Source of the DNA: an uncultured Anaerolineae bacterium
GTDB lineage: Bacteria; Chloroflexota; Anaerolineae; VGOG01
Length of the DNA stretch: 34,370 nt
Reading direction: 5' to 3'
Assembly (NCBI GenBank): GCA_964602575.1
Contig: CAZRSI010000003.1
Span: 1 to 34,370 of the forward strand
A program made the position numbers and the translations under genes. Under the pieces are notes generated by a model. The model had not been told where the DNA came from and did not search any database. It was given only the letters and a program-made list of their open reading frames with translations. This document shows, piece by piece, positions 9,200 through 31,013 of the stretch (position 1 is its first letter; each line of letters begins with the position of its first letter).

Positions 9200-9210
9200 G
9201 CTCGGAGACC

Positions 9211-9287
9211 CGTAAACTCGTAAGTTCGTAAACTCGTGAATTCGGGAGCTGATCCACGAGTTTACGATTATACGAATCTACGACTCC
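9211..9287. repeat. Inverted arrays of CGT-phased octamers forming a long imperfect hairpin
   Basis: The left array is CGTAAACT CGTAAGTT CGTAAACT CGTGAATT CGGGAGCT (9211-9250). The right array is ACGAGTTT ACGATTAT ACGAATCT ACGACTCC (9256-9287). The core 12-bp perfect stem pairs CGTAAACTCGTG (9227-9238) with CACGAGTTTACG (9255-9266) around a 16-nt loop. Confidence 0.75.
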
Positions 9288-14405: not shown

Positions 14406-14445
14406 GGCACCAAGCCCGAGTATAAATTTACTTGGGCTTGGTGCC
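14406..14445 (+). promoter_or_regulatory. Stem-loop directly after the binding-protein gene (attenuator or mRNA stabiliser)
   Basis: GGCACCAAGCCCGAG (14406-14420) pairs with CTTGGGCTTGGTGCC (14431-14445). That gives 15 bp with one G-U and a 10-nt AT-rich loop. Only TTT follows. Confidence 0.55.
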
Positions 14446-17061: not shown

Positions 17062-17763
17062 ATGCTGATCGTAAACAAGATCAACTGTTACTATGGCAAG
17101 TTGCATGTCATCCGAGATGCATCGCTGGAGGTAGGAAACGAGGCAGTGGGCTTATTTGGGCCTAATGGAGCAGGCAAGACCACCTTAATACATACTATCA
17201 TTGGCTTGTTAAAACCTGCGACTGGCAAGATTACTTTTGAGGGCAAATCCTTGCTTCACATGGAAACACATGAAATCATTCGAGAAGGGATTGCAATAGT
17301 TCCACAAGAGAGAGAACTATTTCCATTCATGTCTGTGCGAGGCAACTTGGAAGCAGGCGCCGCTTATATCCCAAGTGCCAAAAATAGAATGGGCGAGAGA
17401 TTGGATTACGTTTTTGATCTTTATCCCTTACTAAAAGAACGATCAAAGCAGCTTGCCGGGACATTAAGCGGAGGAGAACAACGGATGTTGGCGATTGCCC
17501 GCGCTCTTATGGCCTGCCCCAAGCTCCTCATTTTGGATGAACCGTCTTTGGGCTTGCAGCCTTCTTTGGTTTCGGAACTCTTTTGCAAGCTAAAGGAAAT
17601 CAAAAAAGAGGTCTCTATCCTGATAGCAGAACAGAATGTACGCCAAACTTTGAGAGTCATCGATAGAGGATATGTAATCGAGAATGGCAGGATTGTATGG
17701 AGTGATGATGCCGAAGGCCTGGCACGGAGCGAGAAAGTAAAAAAGTCGTATTTGGGTTTGTGA
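17062..17763 (+). CDS. livF: ABC transporter ATP-binding protein (LivF family)
   Basis: Walker A GPNGAGKTT, canonical signature LSGGEQ and Walker B LLILDE are present. It starts directly after the livG stop. Confidence 0.9.
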   Translation: MLIVNKINCYYGKLHVIRDASLEVGNEAVGLFGPNGAGKTTLIHTIIGLLKPATGKITFEGKSLLHMETHEIIREGIAIVPQERELFPFMSVRGNLEAGAAYIPSAKNRMGERLDYVFDLYPLLKERSKQLAGTLSGGEQRMLAIARALMACPKLLILDEPSLGLQPSLVSELFCKLKEIKKEVSILIAEQNVRQTLRVIDRGYVIENGRIVWSDDAEGLARSEKVKKSYLGL

Positions 17764-17771
17764 TCAAAGCG

Positions 17772-19091
17772 ATGAGCGACCTTGAAAATCTGAGAATCAA
17801 ACTCACCCCAGAGGAATGGGATATTCTACAGGGCAAGCAGGGGCCAACCATGCAGAGGGTCATGGAAACCGTGGTGCTCTATGGCGAAGCCTTGGGCGCG
17901 GAAAGGCTAGTGGACATCGAGGGGGCTGGACACTTCGTCATAGCCTGGGCCACCCCCGGAATCGCACCGTCCCTGGAGATGCTCGACGAATTGGTGGCGG
18001 CCGGCCTCAAGGCCAAACATTCTTTTACCTTGGACCCAAAAGCCCCCTTGGATTTTGAGAACCTGTGCTTGCGTCCGGAGCAGGAACGGCTCTTGGAACA
18101 GATGTATCGGGATCAGGCTCGCTACGATGAGAGAATGTTGCAACTGGGGCTCCGCGATGCAGATGCCTACACCTGCAATCCCTACTTGCCGGAAGTAGGC
18201 AACATACCCCAAAGAGGCACTATCCTGGCTTGGTCAGAGTCCGCCTGTGCGATTTTCGCCAATTCGGTGCTGGGCGCGAGAACCAATCGCAATGGGGCCA
18301 TCATGGACCTCCTCTCCAACATCGTGGGCAAGACACCCTTGGTGGGCCTCCTGACCGAGGAGGGGCGGCGGGCTACCTGGCTGGTGGAGGTGCGAACTAC
18401 GAAACTGCCACACCCGCAGTTGCTGGGAGCCGCCATCGGCAAGAAGGTGCTGGAGGGCGTGCCATTCATCGTAGGGCTGGATCGCTTTCTGGGTACTGAA
18501 CTGAGCGAGGAAACCCGCGATTACCTCCAGGACATGGGTGCAGCCTGCGCTACCTACGGGGCCGTCGGACTCTACCACGTGGAGAACATAACTCCTGAAG
18601 CGGTTGAGCAGGGCACCGACCTGCTGATTCCGGATCATGCGACCTACGTGATAGATGACCAGGAACTCCAGGGCCTGTTGGCCTCTTATCCGGTGCTGTG
18701 GCCTAGCGGGAAGACGAAACCTGAGAAGTGCTACATCGGGTGCCCTCATCTGAGCCTGCGACAGTTGTACTGGTGGACCGACAGGATCCACAATGCGCTG
18801 GAGGCCAGGGGCCAGAGCCAACTCGCCGTTGAGACTGTTCTGTTTGCCGCTCCCCAGGTATTGCAGAAGTTTAAAGCCGACACGGAGACCCACAAGCGAC
18901 TGCAGTGTGCCGGCGTCAAGCTCAGCCCAGCCTGCGCTGAGACCCTGTTCGAGGGTGGCGTGAGTGCGGAGGATGCGGTGGTCACCAACTCCAACAAGCT
19001 GCGGGCCTACACTACAGCCAGGTTCTTCCCCGATGAGGAACTGGTGGATATCCTGGTCAGTGGAGAGATAACAGACCCTAAGGGTTTCTGA
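17772..19091 (+). CDS. Aconitase X large (catalytic) subunit, DUF521 family
   Basis: The N-terminus LTPEEWDILQGKQGPTMQRVMETVVLYGEALGAERLVDIEGAGHF matches the DUF521/AcnX catalytic-domain pattern as I recall it. The ORF opens at GTG 17760, overlapping the livF stop, and ATG 17772 is the preferred start. About 440 aa is the expected size. Confidence 0.8.
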   Translation: MSDLENLRIKLTPEEWDILQGKQGPTMQRVMETVVLYGEALGAERLVDIEGAGHFVIAWATPGIAPSLEMLDELVAAGLKAKHSFTLDPKAPLDFENLCLRPEQERLLEQMYRDQARYDERMLQLGLRDADAYTCNPYLPEVGNIPQRGTILAWSESACAIFANSVLGARTNRNGAIMDLLSNIVGKTPLVGLLTEEGRRATWLVEVRTTKLPHPQLLGAAIGKKVLEGVPFIVGLDRFLGTELSEETRDYLQDMGAACATYGAVGLYHVENITPEAVEQGTDLLIPDHATYVIDDQELQGLLASYPVLWPSGKTKPEKCYIGCPHLSLRQLYWWTDRIHNALEARGQSQLAVETVLFAAPQVLQKFKADTETHKRLQCAGVKLSPACAETLFEGGVSAEDAVVTNSNKLRAYTTARFFPDEELVDILVSGEITDPKGF

Positions 19092-19103
19092 AACCCTTAG
19101 GGT
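19075..19103. repeat. 29-nt perfect palindrome straddling the AcnX-L stop codon (copy 1)
   Basis: ACCCTAAGGGTTTC-t-GAAACCCTTAGGGT has 14-bp arms. The TGA stop (19089-19091) sits at the centre. A related copy lies at 22999-23031. Confidence 0.8.
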
Positions 19104-19123
19104 TTCCGAGGAGGAGGAATGAT

Positions 19124-20419
19124 ATGAGCAAATCATCGGAGTTGATCGAACGCGACCACACCACCGTAGCCGCTACCATCTACAGATACACCAATATCGC
19201 CTTCCAGCGGGGCGAAGGGGTGTACCTCTACGATTGCGAGGGCCGCAGGTATCTGGACTTTGTGGCGGGCATCGCCACCATGAACGTGGGACACTGTCAC
19301 CCGGCCGTGGTGGAGGCCATCTGCGACCAGGCCCGTACCCTCATCCACGGCGCCTGCCACGTGGGTTACATGGAGCCTTACGTGGACCTGCTGGAGGCAC
19401 TCAAGGCCGTGGCCCCCGGCGACCTCAAGAACGGCAAAGGCATCCTGATGAACAGCGGGTCAGAGGCGGTGGAGACGGGCATCAAACTGGCCCGCTATGT
19501 CACCAACCGCCCCATGATCCTGGCCTTTACCGATAGCTTCCACGGGCGGGCTATGGGAGCCTTGGCCCTCACCGCCAGCAACACACTCTACCGCCGACGC
19601 CTGGCCGGCCTTCTGACGGGTGTCTATCACACTCCCTACCCCTACTGTTACCGCTGCCCCCTGAAGCACGAATCGCCAGAGACGTGCGGGCTGGCCTGCC
19701 TCAACCTGGTGGAAAAGGCGCTCCAGACAGTGGTCCCGCCCGAAGACCTGGCGGGCATTGTAGTCGAGCCTATCGCCGGCGAGGGGGGCTACATCGTCCC
19801 GCCCGACGGCTTCCTCCAGGGCCTGCGGGAGATCTGCGACCGTCACGGGGCGCTGCTCATTGCCGATGAGGTGCAAACGGGCTTGGGCCGTACTGGGAAG
19901 ATGTTCGCCGTGGAGCATTGGGGTGTGGTGCCCGATGTCTTATGCCTGGCCAAAGCACTGGGAGGCGGTTTGCCCCTGGGGGCGATGCTGGCCAGAGCGG
20001 ACTTGATAGACGCTTGGCCCCCGGCGGCCCAGGGCACCACCTTTGGCGGCAACCCCATTGCCTGTCGGGCTGGCCTGGCCAGCTTGCGGATCATTCAAGA
20101 GGAGAATCTGATGGCCCACGCCGTGGAGGTGGGCAATTACATTCAGAATCGCTTTCGCGAAGCTCAGAGGGAACTGCCCATCATCGGAAACGTGCGAGGC
20201 AAGGGGCTGATGGTGGCGGTGGAATTGATCAACGCCGACGGCAGCCCGGCCAGCGAGATCATCAAGGCAGTGATCAAAGAGATCGGGGCCCAAGGCGTGG
20301 TCATGACCAAATGCGGCGCCAGCTCTCTGCGCATCGCCCCGCCACTCATCATCACCCAGGAACAGGCAGAAGAGGGGGTGGATATCATCATCGAAACATT
20401 GCGCCGTCATCAGTGGTAG
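19124..20419 (+). CDS. Class-III PLP-dependent aminotransferase (omega-amino acid, GABA or acetylornithine type)
   Basis: 431 aa with the RBS GAGGAGGAGG upstream. It has DEVQTGLGRTGKMFA and the LAKALGGGLPLGA Schiff-base lysine region. Confidence 0.9.
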   Translation: MSKSSELIERDHTTVAATIYRYTNIAFQRGEGVYLYDCEGRRYLDFVAGIATMNVGHCHPAVVEAICDQARTLIHGACHVGYMEPYVDLLEALKAVAPGDLKNGKGILMNSGSEAVETGIKLARYVTNRPMILAFTDSFHGRAMGALALTASNTLYRRRLAGLLTGVYHTPYPYCYRCPLKHESPETCGLACLNLVEKALQTVVPPEDLAGIVVEPIAGEGGYIVPPDGFLQGLREICDRHGALLIADEVQTGLGRTGKMFAVEHWGVVPDVLCLAKALGGGLPLGAMLARADLIDAWPPAAQGTTFGGNPIACRAGLASLRIIQEENLMAHAVEVGNYIQNRFREAQRELPIIGNVRGKGLMVAVELINADGSPASEIIKAVIKEIGAQGVVMTKCGASSLRIAPPLIITQEQAEEGVDIIIETLRRHQW

Positions 20420-20450
20420 CGGCATTGTTGCGCCACAGCTCACCTGCTCT

Positions 20451-20494
20451 CGCTGGACCCTAGTCCAGCGGCCTCAGCGGACTAGGATCTGCTG
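20451..20494. repeat. Twin-hairpin element, copy 2 (diverged)
   Basis: The first hairpin is CGCTGGAC-ccta-GTCCAGCG (20451-20470). The second is CAGCGGA-ctagg-TCTGCTG (20475-20494, one G-U). Flanking GCTCTC (20445-20450) pairs with GAGAGC (20494-20499). The core GGACCyTAGTCC / GGACTAGG is as in copies 1 and 3. Confidence 0.65.
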
Positions 20495-20547
20495 AGAGCA
20501 TAAGATGAGCATACCAAAACCCACCAAATAAAAAGGAGGTTCTCGAA

Positions 20548-22056
20548 ATGATAAAACTTACAGAAAGAGCAGCCAGTATACAACCTATTAAGTCGAAACT
20601 AAAGATCAGCGTGCTCGACGATGAGGACATACAGAAGATAAACCAGGCCGCCCTGACTATCTTGGAAGAAGTCGGGGTAGTGATGCCGTCGGAGAAGGCG
20701 CTGAGGATCTTCGCCGATGCCGGGGCCAATGTGGATTTCGACAAGAAGCTGGTCAAGATTCCAAGTCACCTGGTAGTTGATTCCTTGAAGAAAGCCCCCA
20801 GGCGTTACACTCTATGTGGAAGGAGGCCTGAGCTCGATGCCCATATAGGAAGCAATGAGGGCACCTACTTCTATTGCAGTGGCGAAGCGCCCAAGATCGT
20901 GGACCTGGAAACCGGTGAGAGGCGACACTCGATCAAGAGCGACGTGGGAAACATGGCGAAGGTAGCCGACTACCTTCCCATCGTATCACTGGTTTGGCCA
21001 ACGGTCAGCGCAAACGATAAAGGAGTGACTGCGCCGATTCACGGGGTGGAGGCCTGCTTCAACAATACGGAAAAGCATGTCCAGACGGAATCCGTCATGG
21101 ACAAGATCTCAGCTAAGTATACTATTGAGATGGCCTCCGTAATCGCTGGAGGCCGGGACAAGCTGAGGGAGAGGCCGATCTTCTCGCTCCTGTTATGCGC
21201 TATCGCACCCCTTGCTCAGGATAGAGGAGGGATAGAAGCGGCTTTAACCTTCGCCGAAGCCGGTCTGCCGGTAGGGGTAATGTCCATGCCCACCATGGGC
21301 CTGACAGCCCCGCCATATCAGGCTGCTGCCCTGGCTGTGGGGTTGGCGGAAACGTTGAGCGGTTGTACCTTGATCCAGATTGCCTACCCAGGGACTCCCA
21401 ACTACATATCCATCATCCCGGCAATTATAGATCCACGAACGGGAAGCTACTTCATGGGGTCAGCCTTTGCCCAGATCGCCAGTGCTGCCGCCGTTCAGCT
21501 TGCCCATTCCAACGGACTACCTATTACGGCCTGCAAATCCTTCGGTGGAAGCCAGTATAAATTGAATAATTGGCAAGTAGGAATAGAGAATCTTTATGGC
21601 CATATCCTGGCAGTCATGGCCGGGGCGGACATGTCCTTCGGGCCCAGCGGCATGATAGAGGCCGTGAGTTTGCTGGATATGAGAAGGATCCTATTTGACC
21701 GCGAGATCCTTCAGGTCATAGACATCGTCACCGATGGAATCGAGGTAAACAGCGAGACTCTGGCTTTTGACATGGTGCGCGAGGTAGGTCCTCGAGGTAT
21801 GTTCTTAGCTCAACGGCGCACGGCAAAAGAGCTTCGCAAACTCTGGCCCTCCTCTATCCTGCTTGAACCATCCCAGGTTCCAGAGGAAAGATACAGGGAT
21901 CCAGTGGAGGTTGCCCACGAGGTTATTGACTGGATCCTGAAGAATCATAAGCCAGAACCATTGCCCGAAGACGTGAGGGAGGAACTCAGGAGGATAGTGG
22001 CTGCTGCTGATCGGGATAAGGAGCTGAAGCGAGAAGTTGAAGGAGCCCACAGGTGA
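20548..22056 (+). CDS. MttB-superfamily methyltransferase, non-pyrrolysine type (quaternary amine:corrinoid methyltransferase candidate)
   Basis: 502 aa with the RBS AAAAGGAGG upstream. The N-terminus LDDEDIQKINQAALTILEEVGVVMPSEKALRIFADAGANVD and the overall length are typical of the trimethylamine methyltransferase (MttB) family. The reading frame is uninterrupted, with no in-frame TAG. Confidence 0.8.
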   Translation: MIKLTERAASIQPIKSKLKISVLDDEDIQKINQAALTILEEVGVVMPSEKALRIFADAGANVDFDKKLVKIPSHLVVDSLKKAPRRYTLCGRRPELDAHIGSNEGTYFYCSGEAPKIVDLETGERRHSIKSDVGNMAKVADYLPIVSLVWPTVSANDKGVTAPIHGVEACFNNTEKHVQTESVMDKISAKYTIEMASVIAGGRDKLRERPIFSLLLCAIAPLAQDRGGIEAALTFAEAGLPVGVMSMPTMGLTAPPYQAAALAVGLAETLSGCTLIQIAYPGTPNYISIIPAIIDPRTGSYFMGSAFAQIASAAAVQLAHSNGLPITACKSFGGSQYKLNNWQVGIENLYGHILAVMAGADMSFGPSGMIEAVSLLDMRRILFDREILQVIDIVTDGIEVNSETLAFDMVREVGPRGMFLAQRRTAKELRKLWPSSILLEPSQVPEERYRDPVEVAHEVIDWILKNHKPEPLPEDVREELRRIVAAADRDKELKREVEGAHR

Positions 22057-23477
22057 GAATCGAGCACGTGGCCGTCATCGGCGCCGGCACGATGGGACAC
22101 GGCATCGCCCAAGTATTCGCTCTGGGCGGCTTGCAGGTGGCCCTGACCGACAGCGATGCGGAGGTTCTGGGAAAAGCGATTCAGCGCATCCAGGCGAATC
22201 TCGAGACTTGTGTTGAGTATGGCCTCATCGCTGAAGAACAGGCTGCGGCCGTACCAGCCCGTATCGCTTTGACCTCCAATCTGGCCGATGCGGTTGCTCA
22301 GGCTGACTTCATCGTGGAAGCCGTCTTTGAGAACCTCGCCGTCAAGCGCGAGGTGCTTCGCCAATTGGAGGAGTGCTGTCCGGCCCACGCCATCATCGCC
22401 AGCACCACCTCCAGCTTTCGCGCCCGTGACATGGCCGTCGCGCTGAGCCGCCCGGAGCGGTTCCTGGTAACCCACTTTTGGAATCCGCCATACGTCATTC
22501 CGGTCGTGGAGGTGATGCCTGGAGATCGCACCTCCGCCGAGGCTGTCCAGACCACCATGACGCTTCTAGAAGATGTGGGCAAGTATCCAGCGCTGGTGAG
22601 GAAGGACGTGGCCGGTTTCGTCGGTAATAGGCTGCAGCACGCTTTGCGCCGAGAGGCGATTGCCATCGTGGCTGAGGGTATCGCCAGCCCTGAGGATGTG
22701 GACCTCATCGCCAGGCTGAGTTTCGGCCTGCGGTTGCCCGTGCTGGGCCCACTGGAGACCGTTGATCTGGGTGGCCTGGACCTCACGCTGGCCATTCAGA
22801 CCTACCTGCTCCCGGAGCTGGACCGTTCCACCGAGCCCAAGCCGTTGATCCGCGATAAGGTGGCACGCGGCGAACTGGGTGCCAAAGCCGGCCGAGGATT
22901 CTACGACTGGCCCCCAGGCCGGGCTGCGGAGGTCATTCGGCGACGGGACGAGGCTCTTCTGGAGATGGTTCAGTGGTTGAGATCCCGCGGTTTCCTGCAG
23001 ACCCGAAGGGTTTCGAAAACCCTTCGGGTCTCCTTCCAGGGAAGAGCGATCCTTCCAGGCAACCTGGAAGGTGAGGCCCTGGTAACCCACATGGGGTTTA
23101 ACGCTTACGCCAGCTTCTCTACCAGCATCCACGCTCCGGTGGAGTCGGCCCAATGCGCCGACAGCAGCAATCCGGAACTCTACGGGAAGAATCTGACCGA
23201 CAAGATCCTTTGCCTTCCCCAAACCACCGGCTCCACCTCAGCCGGAGCGGTGTGGCAAAGGGTGGCCCAAATGGGGATCGCGCCCAAAGCGGTGTTGTTT
23301 TCCCAACGGATAGACTCCTTGGCTGCTGGAGGATTGATCGTAGCCGATGTGTGGGCTGGCAAGCGAATCGTCACCGTAGACCAATTAGGTGACGAGTTCC
23401 TGGAAACCGTCCGGGACGGCGACCGGATCGTGATACGAGAGGATGGCACAGTCATTGTCGAGAAGGGAGAAGCATGA
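22053..23477 (+). CDS. Fusion protein: N-terminal 3-hydroxyacyl-CoA-dehydrogenase-family NAD domain plus C-terminal aconitase X small (swivel) subunit, DUF126
   Basis: The GTG start overlaps the mttB stop (GTGA). The N-terminal part has the Rossmann motif VIGAGTMGHGIA and HFWNPPYVIPVVEV. The C-terminal roughly 148 aa (GRAILPGNLEGEALV...KILCLPQTTGSTSAGAVW...GDRIVIREDGTVIV) match the DUF126 pattern. The linker TRRVSKTLRVS is encoded by the palindrome at 22999-23031. Confidence 0.8.
   Translation: MRIEHVAVIGAGTMGHGIAQVFALGGLQVALTDSDAEVLGKAIQRIQANLETCVEYGLIAEEQAAAVPARIALTSNLADAVAQADFIVEAVFENLAVKREVLRQLEECCPAHAIIASTTSSFRARDMAVALSRPERFLVTHFWNPPYVIPVVEVMPGDRTSAEAVQTTMTLLEDVGKYPALVRKDVAGFVGNRLQHALRREAIAIVAEGIASPEDVDLIARLSFGLRLPVLGPLETVDLGGLDLTLAIQTYLLPELDRSTEPKPLIRDKVARGELGAKAGRGFYDWPPGRAAEVIRRRDEALLEMVQWLRSRGFLQTRRVSKTLRVSFQGRAILPGNLEGEALVTHMGFNAYASFSTSIHAPVESAQCADSSNPELYGKNLTDKILCLPQTTGSTSAGAVWQRVAQMGIAPKAVLFSQRIDSLAAGGLIVADVWAGKRIVTVDQLGDEFLETVRDGDRIVIREDGTVIVEKGEA
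22999..23031. repeat. 33-nt palindrome (copy 2) lying in frame inside the fusion ORF
   Basis: AGACCCGAAGGGTTT-cga-AAACCCTTCGGGTCT has 15-bp arms. It differs from copy 1 by paired changes in both arms: CTAAG/CTTAG versus CGAAG/CTTCG. Confidence 0.8.
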
Positions 23478-24883: not shown

Positions 24884-26731
24884 ATGACTAGGAAGACTCT
24901 GACCAATCTGGTTCTGGCGCTAGCCATGTTGCTGACCATGTTGGGTGCGGCCAGCGCTGCCCCGCCGGCCCAGGAGGAGATGACCTACACGGTCAAGCTG
25001 GGGGACAACCTGTGGACCCTGGCGGAGAAGTACCTGGGCAGCGGTCCGGCCTACTGGGCCATCGTCGGTGCTACCAATACCAGACATGGGACAGACCCCA
25101 CCTTCGCCCGCATCGAGAACCCCGACCTGATCCATCCTGGCTGGAAGCTCCTCATCCCCAGTGTCGAGGAAGCAGCGAGATATGCTGCTCTCGCCAAGCC
25201 TGTCCCGACCGGCCTCGTCACCATGCGCGTCGGCACCACCTACATCCTGGACACCATCAACGTCAACGTGTCCTGGACGAGCTGGTCCATCTGGCGGCTC
25301 ATCTACGATGCACTGATCGAGACGAGCGCTCTGGGCGTCTATAGGCCCGGCCTCGCAGAGAGCTGGAGCGTGTCCGACGATGGCCTGACCTGGACGTTTA
25401 AGATCCGGAAGGGAGTGACCTTCCACGACGGTACGCCCTGCACCGCCAAGGACGTCGCCTGGAGCCTCAACTGGATGAAAACGGTAGGGAACGACAGCCT
25501 GTCCTATCTGTGGGATGATGAAACCGAGGAAATCGTTGCCCTGGACGACACCACCTTGCAGATCAAGACCCCCTTCCCAGTGGGCAACATGGAGTACCGC
25601 ATGTTCTGGGCCTTCATTGTCCCGAAGAGTGTATGGGGCGGCATTGACAACTACGACGATATGGCAGCCTACACGGAGCTCGATGCTGCCACAGGCACGG
25701 GCCCCTTCAAGGTGGTGGACTATGCCCCAGATGAGTACCTGATCCTGGAGGCCAATGAGAACTACTGGGGGGGCAAGCCTGCCATTGACAGGCTCATCTT
25801 CCAACAGTACGCCACTGAGGATGCCATGGTGCAGGCGCTGCTGGCTGGCGAGATTGACGCCATCGAGGGCGTTCCAGCCACAGCGGTCCAAACCTTGCAG
25901 GAGGCGGATAACATCCACGTGGAGATCCTGCAAGGGCACGCGGTGGATGAGTTGACCATCAACTCCCACGAGAACGGCACCCAGCCGCCCAGCCTGAACG
26001 ATCCCATTGTGCGCCTAGCCATCGAGTATGCCATTGACCGCCAGAAGATCATTGACGTGGCCTACATGGGTTTCGGCACGCCAGCCACGACCATGATCGC
26101 TCCCAGCCTGGGAGACTGGCACAACAGCGAAATCGAGGCCATCCCCTTCGACCCCGACGAGGGCAATCGCATCCTCGATGAAGCCGGCTACCTGGACACC
26201 GACGGCGATGGCATCCGCGAGTGGTCCGATGGCACCCCGATGAAGTACCGCCTGATGGGTGGAGACACTGCTACCGACGCCCGCGTCCTGGAGATCATCG
26301 CCGATGGCTTGGCCCAGATTGGCATCGGCACCGAGATCAACGCCGTGGACTTTGAAACCCAGTCCGCAAAGGCTTACGAGTACGACTTCGACTTGAACTA
26401 CTGGTGGTGGGGCATGGACATTGATCCCGACTTTGCTATGGTGATCTTCAAATGCGAGGAGCGAGAGGGCTGGGGCTGGAATCCCAACGGTTACTGCAAC
26501 CCAGAGTTCGAGGAGTTGTACAAGCAACAGGCCAGGGCCGTGGATCACGAAGAACGGCGCAAGATCATCTGGAAGATGCAGGAAATGATTTACAACGATC
26601 GCCCCTGGATCGTGCTCCTCTATCGGGTCAACATCGCGGCCTATCGCAGCGACCGCTTCACTGGCTTCAGGCCGGAAGCCAAGTATCTGCTGGGGAAGTG
26701 GTCACTGATGCATGTTGAGCCCCTGGTATAG
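24884..26731 (+). CDS. Family-5 (Dpp/Opp-type) peptide ABC substrate-binding protein with an N-terminal LysM domain
   Basis: It has a signal peptide ending in ASAAPPA, with no lipobox. The LysM-like module YTVKLGDNLWTLAEKYLG...IHPGWKLLIP spans about 24986-25159. The remaining roughly 520 aa are SBP_bac_5-like (FKIRKGVTFHDGTP, ANENYWGGKP). The RBS AAGGAGG lies upstream. Confidence 0.85.
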   Translation: MTRKTLTNLVLALAMLLTMLGAASAAPPAQEEMTYTVKLGDNLWTLAEKYLGSGPAYWAIVGATNTRHGTDPTFARIENPDLIHPGWKLLIPSVEEAARYAALAKPVPTGLVTMRVGTTYILDTINVNVSWTSWSIWRLIYDALIETSALGVYRPGLAESWSVSDDGLTWTFKIRKGVTFHDGTPCTAKDVAWSLNWMKTVGNDSLSYLWDDETEEIVALDDTTLQIKTPFPVGNMEYRMFWAFIVPKSVWGGIDNYDDMAAYTELDAATGTGPFKVVDYAPDEYLILEANENYWGGKPAIDRLIFQQYATEDAMVQALLAGEIDAIEGVPATAVQTLQEADNIHVEILQGHAVDELTINSHENGTQPPSLNDPIVRLAIEYAIDRQKIIDVAYMGFGTPATTMIAPSLGDWHNSEIEAIPFDPDEGNRILDEAGYLDTDGDGIREWSDGTPMKYRLMGGDTATDARVLEIIADGLAQIGIGTEINAVDFETQSAKAYEYDFDLNYWWWGMDIDPDFAMVIFKCEEREGWGWNPNGYCNPEFEELYKQQARAVDHEERRKIIWKMQEMIYNDRPWIVLLYRVNIAAYRSDRFTGFRPEAKYLLGKWSLMHVEPLV

Positions 26732-26748: not shown

Positions 26749-26783
26749 TCCGGTCGGCCCGGCTCGTTGCCGGGCCGACCGGA
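26749..26783 (+). promoter_or_regulatory. Stem-loop directly after the peptide-binding-protein gene
   Basis: TCCGGTCGGCCCGGC-tcgtt-GCCGGGCCGACCGGA is a 15-bp perfect GC-rich stem. No T-tract follows. Confidence 0.6.
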
Positions 26784-30982: not shown

Positions 30983-31013
30983 AAGGCCCCGGCGTAACCT
31001 ACGCCGGGGCCTT
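30983..31013. terminator. Bidirectional intrinsic terminator between convergent dppF and panB
   Basis: AAGGCCCCGGCG-taaccta-CGCCGGGGCCTT is a 12-bp GC-rich stem. It is flanked by AAAA on the left and CTTCTT on the right, and sits between two convergent gene ends. Confidence 0.75.

Follow-up and report, generated by a model that had tools for sequence, protein, structure and literature searches.

Stop-loss fusion of bacterial domains turns adjacent, co-transcribed and coupled genes into one open reading frame (ORF), with the spacer between them kept as a linker. A different type of sequence located between cistrons, or at gene 3′ ends, is the repetitive extragenic palindromic (REP) type, which comprises stable palindromes of ~30-40 nucleotides (nt), multi-copy, mostly extragenic and in families that are normally species- or genus-specific. 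Both are pertinent to a stretch of 34,370 nt from an uncultured Anaerolineae bacterium (contig CAZRSI010000003.1 of GenBank assembly GCA_964602575.1; hereafter ‘the window’), in which a 33-nt palindromic hairpin is translated in frame between a 3-hydroxyacyl-CoA dehydrogenase (hbd) domain and the small, or swivel, subunit domain of AcnX (AcnX-S). It is highly probable that the arrangement as a whole is explained by capture of an intercistronic hairpin as the linker of a dehydrogenase-AcnX-S fusion.

Rickettsia palindromic elements (RPEs), of ~100-150 bp, are translated in frame inside genes (Ogata et al. 2000, via PMC10969869) and, with REP-like repeats, are the nearest precedents. What they have in common with the present case is a palindromic family in frame in coding genes, translated as an extra peptide, with only stop-free frames tolerated. 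RPEs are Rickettsia-restricted and are inserted into existing ORFs, each interrupting a single gene, whereas the present unit is 33 nt, is found in several phyla and in viral contigs, and appears to have been captured between cistrons via stop loss and a deletion that joined two genes. Membership of the RPEs was rejected, given the 33-nt unit and the indication from unfused loci (L135, L007 and L006; comparison loci and contigs carry L numbers) that the element is older than its ORF; only in-frame translation is in common. REP and bacterial interspersed mosaic element (BIME) palindromes, and SPRITE (terminator-like mobile hairpins), are also named in PMC10969869. With REP-like sequences the present family shares size, stability and a predominantly extragenic location at gene ends. 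It differs in having no conserved 5′ GTAG-type head, no bases conserved beyond the 33-nt unit and no link to RAYT or another transposase in 8-kb neighbourhoods, and in its presence in Chloroflexota, Bacteroidota, Desulfobacterota, Gemmatimonadota and phage-like contigs. From terminator-like hairpins it differs in that most copies are without a U-tract.

In common with stop-loss fusions in general, a stop has been lost, the frame adjusted and an intergenic spacer turned into a linker; the difference is that the spacer is a hairpin of a repeat family, with its pairing still conserved at synonymous sites long after the fusion (dS 0.3-1.0). The mechanism is standard, and the route tidy and not unprecedented. 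The cross-phylum family of 33-nt hairpins is undescribed (a full-text literature search for the arm sequences gave unrelated primer or oligonucleotide matches only, and a search on REP-mediated fusions brought up nothing relevant). Natural intermediates in metagenomes, in which operon neighbours are seen becoming a multidomain protein, make this an unusually well-documented case. From the enzyme's perspective, in AcnX Type-I the two subunits of Type-IIa, large and small, are fused to one another (PMC8184944, PMC5144071), and the small subunit (domain 4, swivel) is known to tolerate N-terminal covalent fusion. There its partner is its own large subunit; here it is an unrelated NAD-dependent dehydrogenase, with the large subunit (AcnX-L) still separate. 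A swivel domain tethered to a dehydrogenase in place of its cognate large subunit suggests that two steps are physically coupled.

The fused gene and its two hairpins

Domain calls are from a Pfam profile scan of the window ORFs with gathering scores as cut-offs. The N-terminal part of the fused ORF belongs to the 3-hydroxyacyl-CoA dehydrogenase family, with both of its Pfam domains above their gathering scores (3HCDH_N, PF02737, residues 5-185, 205.7 bits, cut-off 22; 3HCDH, PF00725, residues 188-286, 76.1 bits, cut-off 22.1). The C-terminal part is assigned to the AcnX small subunit by AcnX_swivel (PF01989, residues 373-433, 41.6 bits, cut-off 27) together with orthology to stand-alone AcnX-S genes. 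In alignment with such genes this part begins at residue 328 (FQGRAILPG...), directly after the palindrome, and its nucleotide identity to the separate AcnX-S genes of L006, L007, L009 and L135 is 79-84%. The TTGSTSAGAVW motif is without difference between fused and unfused forms, and that identity, with the purifying selection described below, is consistent with an active [Fe-S] dehydratase that may be formed with AcnX-L. The exact fused protein is encoded on ENA contig ERZ27248120:k141_246141.

Copy 2 of the hairpin, that within the fused gene, is AGACCCGAAGGGTTT-cga-AAACCCTTCGGGTCT. Its arms are 100% complementary, and after a glutamine codon it is translated as T-R-R-V-S-K-T-L-R-V-S, just as a preceding sequence-only reading of the window had proposed for the domain junction. 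The core of copy 1 (19075-19103), also as that reading had it, is ACCCTAAGGGTTTC-t-GAAACCCTTAGGGT; both of its 14-nt arms are again 100% complementary, and the TGA stop of AcnX-L (19089-19091) is in the loop. Its left arm codes for the final AcnX-L residues, TDPKGF, and copy 1 is then partly coding (19073-19091). A Shine-Dalgarno (SD) site, GGAGGAGGA, and the ATG of an aminotransferase gene come 19 nt after it. The two copies differ at paired positions, T/A in one and G/C in the other. With two core-pattern sites in the window against 0.08 expected by chance, the palindromes are more than a chance occurrence, and predicted RNA folding is strong for both, at -25.9 kcal/mol in copy 2 (z = -6.8) and -21.9 kcal/mol in copy 1 (z = -4.8). 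An Rfam scan of the window gave 0 matches at the gathering threshold, and in a permissive scan over the hairpin the best matches were generic miRNA-hairpin models at 12-17 bits.

Between the palindrome and the methionine of VTHMGF the window is devoid of in-frame ATG, GTG and TTG codons, a claim of the earlier reading for its ‘DUF126’ part that stands, and in fused orthologues that methionine is replaced by threonine or valine. The AcnX-S part can therefore be made only as a fusion, and the product, as predicted, is necessarily one 474-aa polypeptide.

The element at the AcnX-L/aminotransferase junction is also present in L003, with a decayed copy in L007, and is absent from L006 and from loci with AcnX-L directly before AcnX-S. 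The AcnX-L tail in L003 and L007 ends at other stops within the element (…DPKGLGNL* and …DPEGFRNF*).

Table 1. Positions of the features discussed, in window coordinates unless a locus is given
Feature	Position	Strand	Remarks
Fused gene, 474 aa	22053..23477	+	3-hydroxyacyl-CoA dehydrogenase (hbd) domain ~22053-22997; hairpin-encoded linker; AcnX-S (swivel) domain 23034-23474
Copy 2 of the 33-nt hairpin	22999..23031	+	15-nt arms, loop CGA; in-frame interdomain linker of 11 residues
CAG (Gln) at ancestral hbd TAG stop	22998..23000	+	L006, L007 and L135 read CTG TAG ACCC; fused forms have CAG (CGG in L132)
Deletion scar GTC TCC TTC	23028..23036	+	right end of hairpin joined to codon 4-5 of ancestral AcnX-S
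Copy 1 of the hairpin element	19073..19105 (with conserved ends)	+	AcnX-L/aminotransferase junction
AcnX large subunit (AcnX-L) gene	17760..19091	+	Pfam AcnX, 268 bits; partner of the fused small-subunit domain
Class-III aminotransferase (19124-20419) and MttB-family methyltransferase (20548-22056)	19124..22056	+	Pfam; with hbd, located between AcnX-L and AcnX-S
hbd tail from duplicated AcnX-L 3′ end	L009:10945-10993; L010:1196-1290; L137, L140, L143, L153-L155		upstream of AcnX-S
In-frame copy in a real gene	L023:4948-4980	-	deltaproteobacterial protein, exact sequence in NCBI/ENA (P0121)
In-frame copy in a real gene	L087:1200-1232		Gemmatimonadota protein sorted by the type IX secretion system (T9SS), QPLRVSETLRV

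Junction states and the origin of the fusion

Fused forms were obtained on eight contigs from eight assemblies or projects (the window, or L001, with L131, L132, L133, L002, L003, L004 and L005). A protein search yielded four fused proteins besides that of the window (P0002-P0005, 85-89% identity), together with many near relatives of ~315-347 aa that are the dehydrogenase alone, and the DNA of the four (L002-L005) has the palindrome in frame. Scanning of metagenomes with the AcnX-S part added L131 (98% amino-acid identity), L132 and L133. In all fused proteins the translated palindrome is the linker, as TLRVSETLRVS, TLKVSETFRVS or TLRGSETLRVS besides the window form. AcnX-S nucleotide identity among the fused contigs is 81-99%, and their fused AcnX-S domain evolves at a dN/dS of 0.05-0.16 over a dS range of 0.02 to ~1.0; with dS reaching such values at so low a ratio, the fusion is, by sequence comparison, real, old and under purifying selection. 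An error of 1-2 nt that masks a stop and a separate start, leaving two genes in reality, had been named in the earlier reading as what would undo the fusion. The window is a metagenome-type assembly and palindromes may provoke local assembly or polishing errors, but the same in-frame junction, at 81-99% identity, is present in seven other contigs from different samples and assemblers, neither SD site nor start codon is left upstream of the AcnX-S part, and the segment that is absent is 22-28 nt long, not 1-2 nt. An artefact is accordingly hardly credible.

Junctions upstream of AcnX-S in relatives were sorted into four states, termed L, T, H and F. In state L, of ~20 loci, AcnX-L is directly before AcnX-S with a GTGA stop/start overlap (...GAGATAAGGGGGAAAGCTGAAGTGAGC). 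In state T, hbd precedes AcnX-S and the hbd tail (...RPPSDQRRDK...) is coded by DNA homologous to the AcnX-L 3′ end (GATCAGCGGAGAGATAAGAGGGGAAAGCTAAAGTGAGC); in L010 ~80 nt of AcnX-L 3′ sequence are still present after hbd. That homology and the L010 remnant indicate that the aminotransferase, mttB and hbd genes were placed between AcnX-L and AcnX-S with duplication of the junction. (The duplicated piece of AcnX-L, in another frame, is the C-terminal hbd tail in relatives that are without the hairpin, and in some more distant relatives hbd overlaps AcnX-S, also with no hairpin.) State H has the hbd end, CTG-TAG, followed by the hairpin, an SD site and the GTG-AGC-AGA-TCA start of AcnX-S. It is best displayed by the unfused L135, with hbd-TAG, a perfect hairpin, GAGAGGGAG...GTG and AcnX-S; in the unfused L007 and L008 the hairpin is decayed and folding is lost (z = +1.0), and in the unfused L006 only a stub, TAG-ACCCTAA, is left with an unrelated 144-nt spacer. 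State F, that of the eight fused contigs, reads from CTG-CAG-ACC... through the hairpin into ...AGG GTC TCC TTC AAG GGG.

The ancestral and the derived state of the junction are thereby both represented among natural sequences. The AG of the ancestral TAG is the first two bases of the element, and in every fused form the stop is CAG (or CGG). Relative to L135, which reads GGGTCT-TGAGAGGGAGAAACTGAAGTGAGCAGATCATTC at this point, ~28 nt are absent at the scar, a segment that held the SD site and GTG start as well as the initial codons; SD and start are missing from all eight fused contigs. The AcnX-S gene of L135 lies at an offset of +1 from the hbd frame, and read-through alone would end 16 codons on at a TGA, so that fusion needed a frame-correcting deletion in addition to the change of TAG to CAG. 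Two forms of the deletion are present. In L003 and L133, which have the character of intermediates, it is 22 nt, with GGATCA retained and a reading of ...RVSGSFKG; in the window and five others it is 28 nt, with a reading of ...RVSFKG or ...RVSFQG. The former intergenic hairpin that the sequence-only reading had envisaged between two separate genes is thus borne out by L135 and by the junctions of the fused forms; in the comparison of orthologous loci for which that reading had asked, near relatives have hbd and AcnX-S as separate genes.

In the sequence of events proposed, the ancestor of the Anaerolineae-type lineage would have had one copy of the element between the hbd TAG, overlapping the AG of the element, and the SD and GTG of AcnX-S, with a second copy at the homologous, duplicated junction after AcnX-L. 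Since the right flank of copy 1 in L003 (GGGTCTCGAGAGGAGAAAGCTGAAGTGAAC) matches that of copy 2 in L135 (GGGTCTTGAGAGGGAGAAACTGAAGTGAGC), the two operon copies are probably at homologous positions of a duplicated junction and not independent insertions. Two mutations would have followed, presumably in this order: a T-to-C change that converted TAG to CAG, and a 22-28-nt deletion that took out the SD and GTG of AcnX-S along with its first codons and corrected the +1 offset. With both, the single stop-free frame of the T/A variant (T-L-R-V-S-E-T-L-R-V) could be read through, the genes would be joined and the hairpin would become an 11-residue linker, presumably a passive one. At present the swivel domain would still have to pair with AcnX-L encoded three genes upstream.

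A different account, also raised in the sequence-only reading, is that a hairpin, mobile in the manner of RPEs, was inserted in frame into an existing dehydrogenase-AcnX-S fusion or its linker. Many genomes and viral contigs do have the element, as a discrete 33-nt unit whose flanks are unrelated, and two other copies (L023 and L087) are in frame, in the same frame, in real genes. Against this, a fused form without the hairpin is found in none of the eight, unfused forms have it right after TAG (perfect in L135, decayed in L007, a stub in L006), and its AG belongs to the ancestral stop codon. At this locus insertion is unsupported and very unlikely.

Whether ‘repeat-mediated’, the term used in the earlier reading, is apt for the fusion preferred here, capture between cistrons, is more questionable. 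That the hairpin became the linker stands. The hairpin is a passenger whose one stop-free frame allowed read-through, and not demonstrably a mediator; a point mutation was required as well, as was a deletion of a length not divisible by three. In general terms, a repeat, be it selfish or regulatory, can turn into a linker if one of its frames is free of stops.

Several points weigh against capture or against a single occurrence of it. Neither window copy is called as an intrinsic terminator on the + strand, and there is no U-tract after either. An AlphaFold2 model from a 15-sequence alignment has a mean predicted local distance difference test (pLDDT) score of 43, too poor for assessment of linker flexibility or domain compatibility, and expression of the ~52-kDa product is likewise a supposition drawn from conservation. 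In the hbd nucleotide tree fused and unfused forms are interleaved, with the fused L004 paired with the unfused L006 (96% bootstrap) and the fused L133 with the unfused L007 (99%), which at face value means several fusions; L004 and L006 are both from sample ERZ24794676, making chimeric assembly possible for that pair.

If there had been several independent fusions from hairpin-bearing unfused ancestors, the hairpin junction would predispose to fusion. The sister pairs of the hbd tree and the existence of two junction subtypes, ...RVSGSFKG and ...RVSFKG, would fit with this. However, sliding-window identity between L004 and L006 is 99-100% over ~450 nt of hbd and 79-88% elsewhere, and such mosaics, due to recombination between co-occurring populations or, for same-sample contigs, to chimeric assembly, can explain the tree, which because of them is uninformative for counting fusion events and was rejected as evidence for more than one. 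In addition, an identical scar, GGGTCTCCTTC, is present in six contigs, with the second subtype apart by a simple 6-nt deletion, and this shared scar favours, though it does not prove, one fusion event with later recombination. Several origins are on this evidence unlikely. Similar mosaic tracts are seen for window/L002, L133/L003 and L004/L132. A neighbour-joining tree of AcnX-S protein was unresolved.

Pairing in the stem and the 33-nt family

None of the 10 third-codon positions of the stem varies among the eight fused genes, as against 57.5% in 200 flanking codons (P ~2e-4). The peptide does vary (TRRVSKTLRV, TLRVSETLRV, TLKVSETFRV), and stem changes at codon positions 1 or 2, which alter it, are compensated in the opposite arm: T-A to G-C in the window and L131, and G-C to A-T in L003, L133 and L135. 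Two paired positions are changed on both sides, and 95.8% of stem cells are paired overall; L004 has a change beside the loop that is not compensated, and an A-to-G change at the stem base in L132 leaves a G-U pair. With synonymous stem sites invariant and peptide-changing substitutions compensated, it is by this comparison the pairing that is conserved, not the peptide. Hairpin pairing kept more strictly than the encoded peptide is a caution for codon-based selection analyses, as well as for gene callers.

The kept pairing could be due to selection on RNA or DNA structure, to conversion from other family copies or to arm-to-arm templated repair. The sequence-only reading took the compensatory difference between the window copies to argue for selection on, or conversion of, the hairpin. 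The paired T/A versus G/C change is as it described, but G/C in copy 2 is a standard variant of the family, and its source may be conversion by some other copy instead of a pair of point mutations.

The possibility that the hairpin is still an RNA element in the fused mRNA, whether as a processing or stability site, a pause between the domains or an attenuator, deserves a place as a tentative explanation for preservation of pairing, though the odds are against it. To the invariant third positions (with residues changing) and the compensated double changes can be added that the few arm mismatches are G-T combinations (in L066 and L129, and at the stem base in L132 and copy 1), tolerated by RNA in one orientation, and that within operons the niche usual for the family is the order stop-hairpin-SD-start, a single phage-like contig having 11 copies. 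On the other hand, translating ribosomes would unwind such a stem, a processed 3′ fragment would be without a usable downstream start, and L004 has its uncompensated change. Gene conversion is equally possible, with four arm variants co-occurring in genomes and both L003 copies sharing the AAAGG variant, and arm-to-arm templated repair of the palindrome has the same effect. A palindromic protein-binding site, whose symmetric half-site variation can mimic covariation, was set aside in view of the four variants within genomes and the near-perfect arm matching; the matching points to intra-strand pairing or arm-to-arm templating over fixed half-site recognition.

The family to which the two copies belong was surveyed in one genome per GTDB species with the pattern CCCKAARGGTTTNNNAAACCYTTMGGG, giving at least 131 copies in at least 120 loci, mostly at gene ends, and the figures that follow refer to these 131. 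The further copies without which, according to the earlier reading, a repeat family would have been in doubt are thus abundant, and the family is real. Its unit is 33 nt, A[G/A]ACCC[T/G]AA[G/A]GGTTT-NNN-AAACC[C/T]TT[A/C]GGGT[C/T]T. Among the matches listed hosts are mostly Anaerolineae and other Chloroflexota, with Cytophagales and Microscillaceae (Bacteroidota), Desulfobacterales (Desulfobacterota), Geobacter, Gemmatimonadota and others also represented. Copies per genome were seen in draft genomes only, several of which, including those of L003 and L007, have 3-6 copies on different contigs; two are in the 34-kb window. Conservation extends to the three flanking bases on each side, which were outside the search pattern (A in 127/131 and 116/131, T in 120/131 and 127/131), the ends of the unit being AGA...TCT in 72 of the listed copies and AAA...TTT in 33. 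Beyond 33 nt the listed copies have unrelated flanks, with no conservation or extra pairing. What is exposed is a sharply delimited family, common to distant phyla and dense in a phage-like contig.

Although the pattern allowed both variable arm positions to differ independently, non-complementary combinations at them number 0/131 and 2/131, against 29% and 50% under independence. All four arm variants (T/G x G/A) are common and co-occur within genomes. As to location, 98 of the 131 are flanked on one side by an open frame shorter than 60 nt or by none at all; 72% are within 60 nt after the stop closing a frame of at least 80 codons (29% of random positions), 17% are in a stop-hairpin-SD-start arrangement (2.8%) and 18% are between convergent gene ends (3.3%). 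In many cases the stop is itself inside the element, which has TAA and TAG in two of the three frames. A run of T4 or more within 12 nt downstream is present for only 27 of the 131 copies; with neither window copy called and the U-tract rare in the family, identity as an intrinsic (Rho-independent) terminator was rejected for the + strand. Also rejected was a miniature inverted-repeat transposable element (MITE), the whole unit being a single hairpin and flanking direct repeats of 2-6 nt, as target-site duplications, being no commoner than in shuffled pairings. No recurrent dedicated mobility gene was found on all-against-all clustering of 1245 ORFs from 8-kb neighbourhoods of the 120 loci with scanning of the two largest families, which (at 17 and 12 loci) are response regulators or related signalling proteins and ABC ATPases. 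Local repeats of 60-110 nt surround the hairpin in three genomes, but are different from genome to genome.

Presence inside a real coding sequence was confirmed for two of the 131 listed copies, L023 and L087, in the same frame as in the fused gene. L023 reads ...DDN-ETLKVSETFRV-YAFD..., next to an Ig-like (Glucodextran_B) domain. Translation of the element is tolerated repeatedly, and always as (T/P)L(R/K)VSET(L/F)RV. Among homologues of the L023 protein the hairpin-coded segment is variable in length and missing from some.

Twelve stretches of viral contigs match. The 36-kb viral contig IMGVR_UViG_3300033405_000047 (L211, L214, L215, L218) has 11 copies, a density of approximately one in 3 kb, and in most cases the copy has a stop before it and the SD and ATG of the next tandem gene after it. 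A broader proposal is that the hairpin is an undescribed RNA (or single-stranded DNA) module, cross-phylum, phage-carried and located between a stop codon and the following ribosome-binding site, which sets intra-operon mRNA processing or stability and is still selected within coding sequence. It is rather improbable; if true, the same 33 bases would encode a protein linker and an RNA element.

Neighbouring genes and other repeats

AcnX-L and the fused AcnX-S domain are three genes apart in the window, whereas in many relatives AcnX-S is directly after AcnX-L with the GTGA overlap. The gene order AcnX-L/aminotransferase/mttB/hbd/AcnX-S recurs in L003, L006 and L007. From ~12000 to 34000 the window encodes two ABC importer systems, AcnX-L, the class-III aminotransferase, the MttB-family methyltransferase and hbd-AcnX-S, with beta-lactamase-fold, corrinoid-binding, pantoate-transferase-like and proline-racemase-like proteins in addition. 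The company of these genes suggests catabolism of (hydroxy)proline or a betaine-type compound.

A second, unrelated palindromic pair is present at 350-399 (TGCTCACGGCGGACCTTAGTCC...GGACTAAGGCCCAGCGGGAGCA), upstream of an ORF starting at 436, and at 20445-20500 (TGCTCTCGCTGGACCCTAGTCC...GGACTAGGATCTGCTGAGAGCA), within the aminotransferase-mttB spacer; the pair looks like another intergenic hairpin family. Spacers also have clusters of short direct or inverted repeats, of the CGTAAACTCGT type at 9202-9282 in the window and of the CACGAATT / AATTCGTG type in the hbd-AcnX-S spacer of L006 (4470-4560). Three strong hairpins with arms 94-100% complementary, at 14406-14445 (GGCACCAAGCCCGAGTA...), 26749-26783 (TCCGGTCGGCCCGGC...) and 30983-31013 (AAGGCCCCGGCGTA...), are unrelated in sequence to the 33-nt family; that at 26749-26783 is just past the stop (26731) of ORF 24884-26731.

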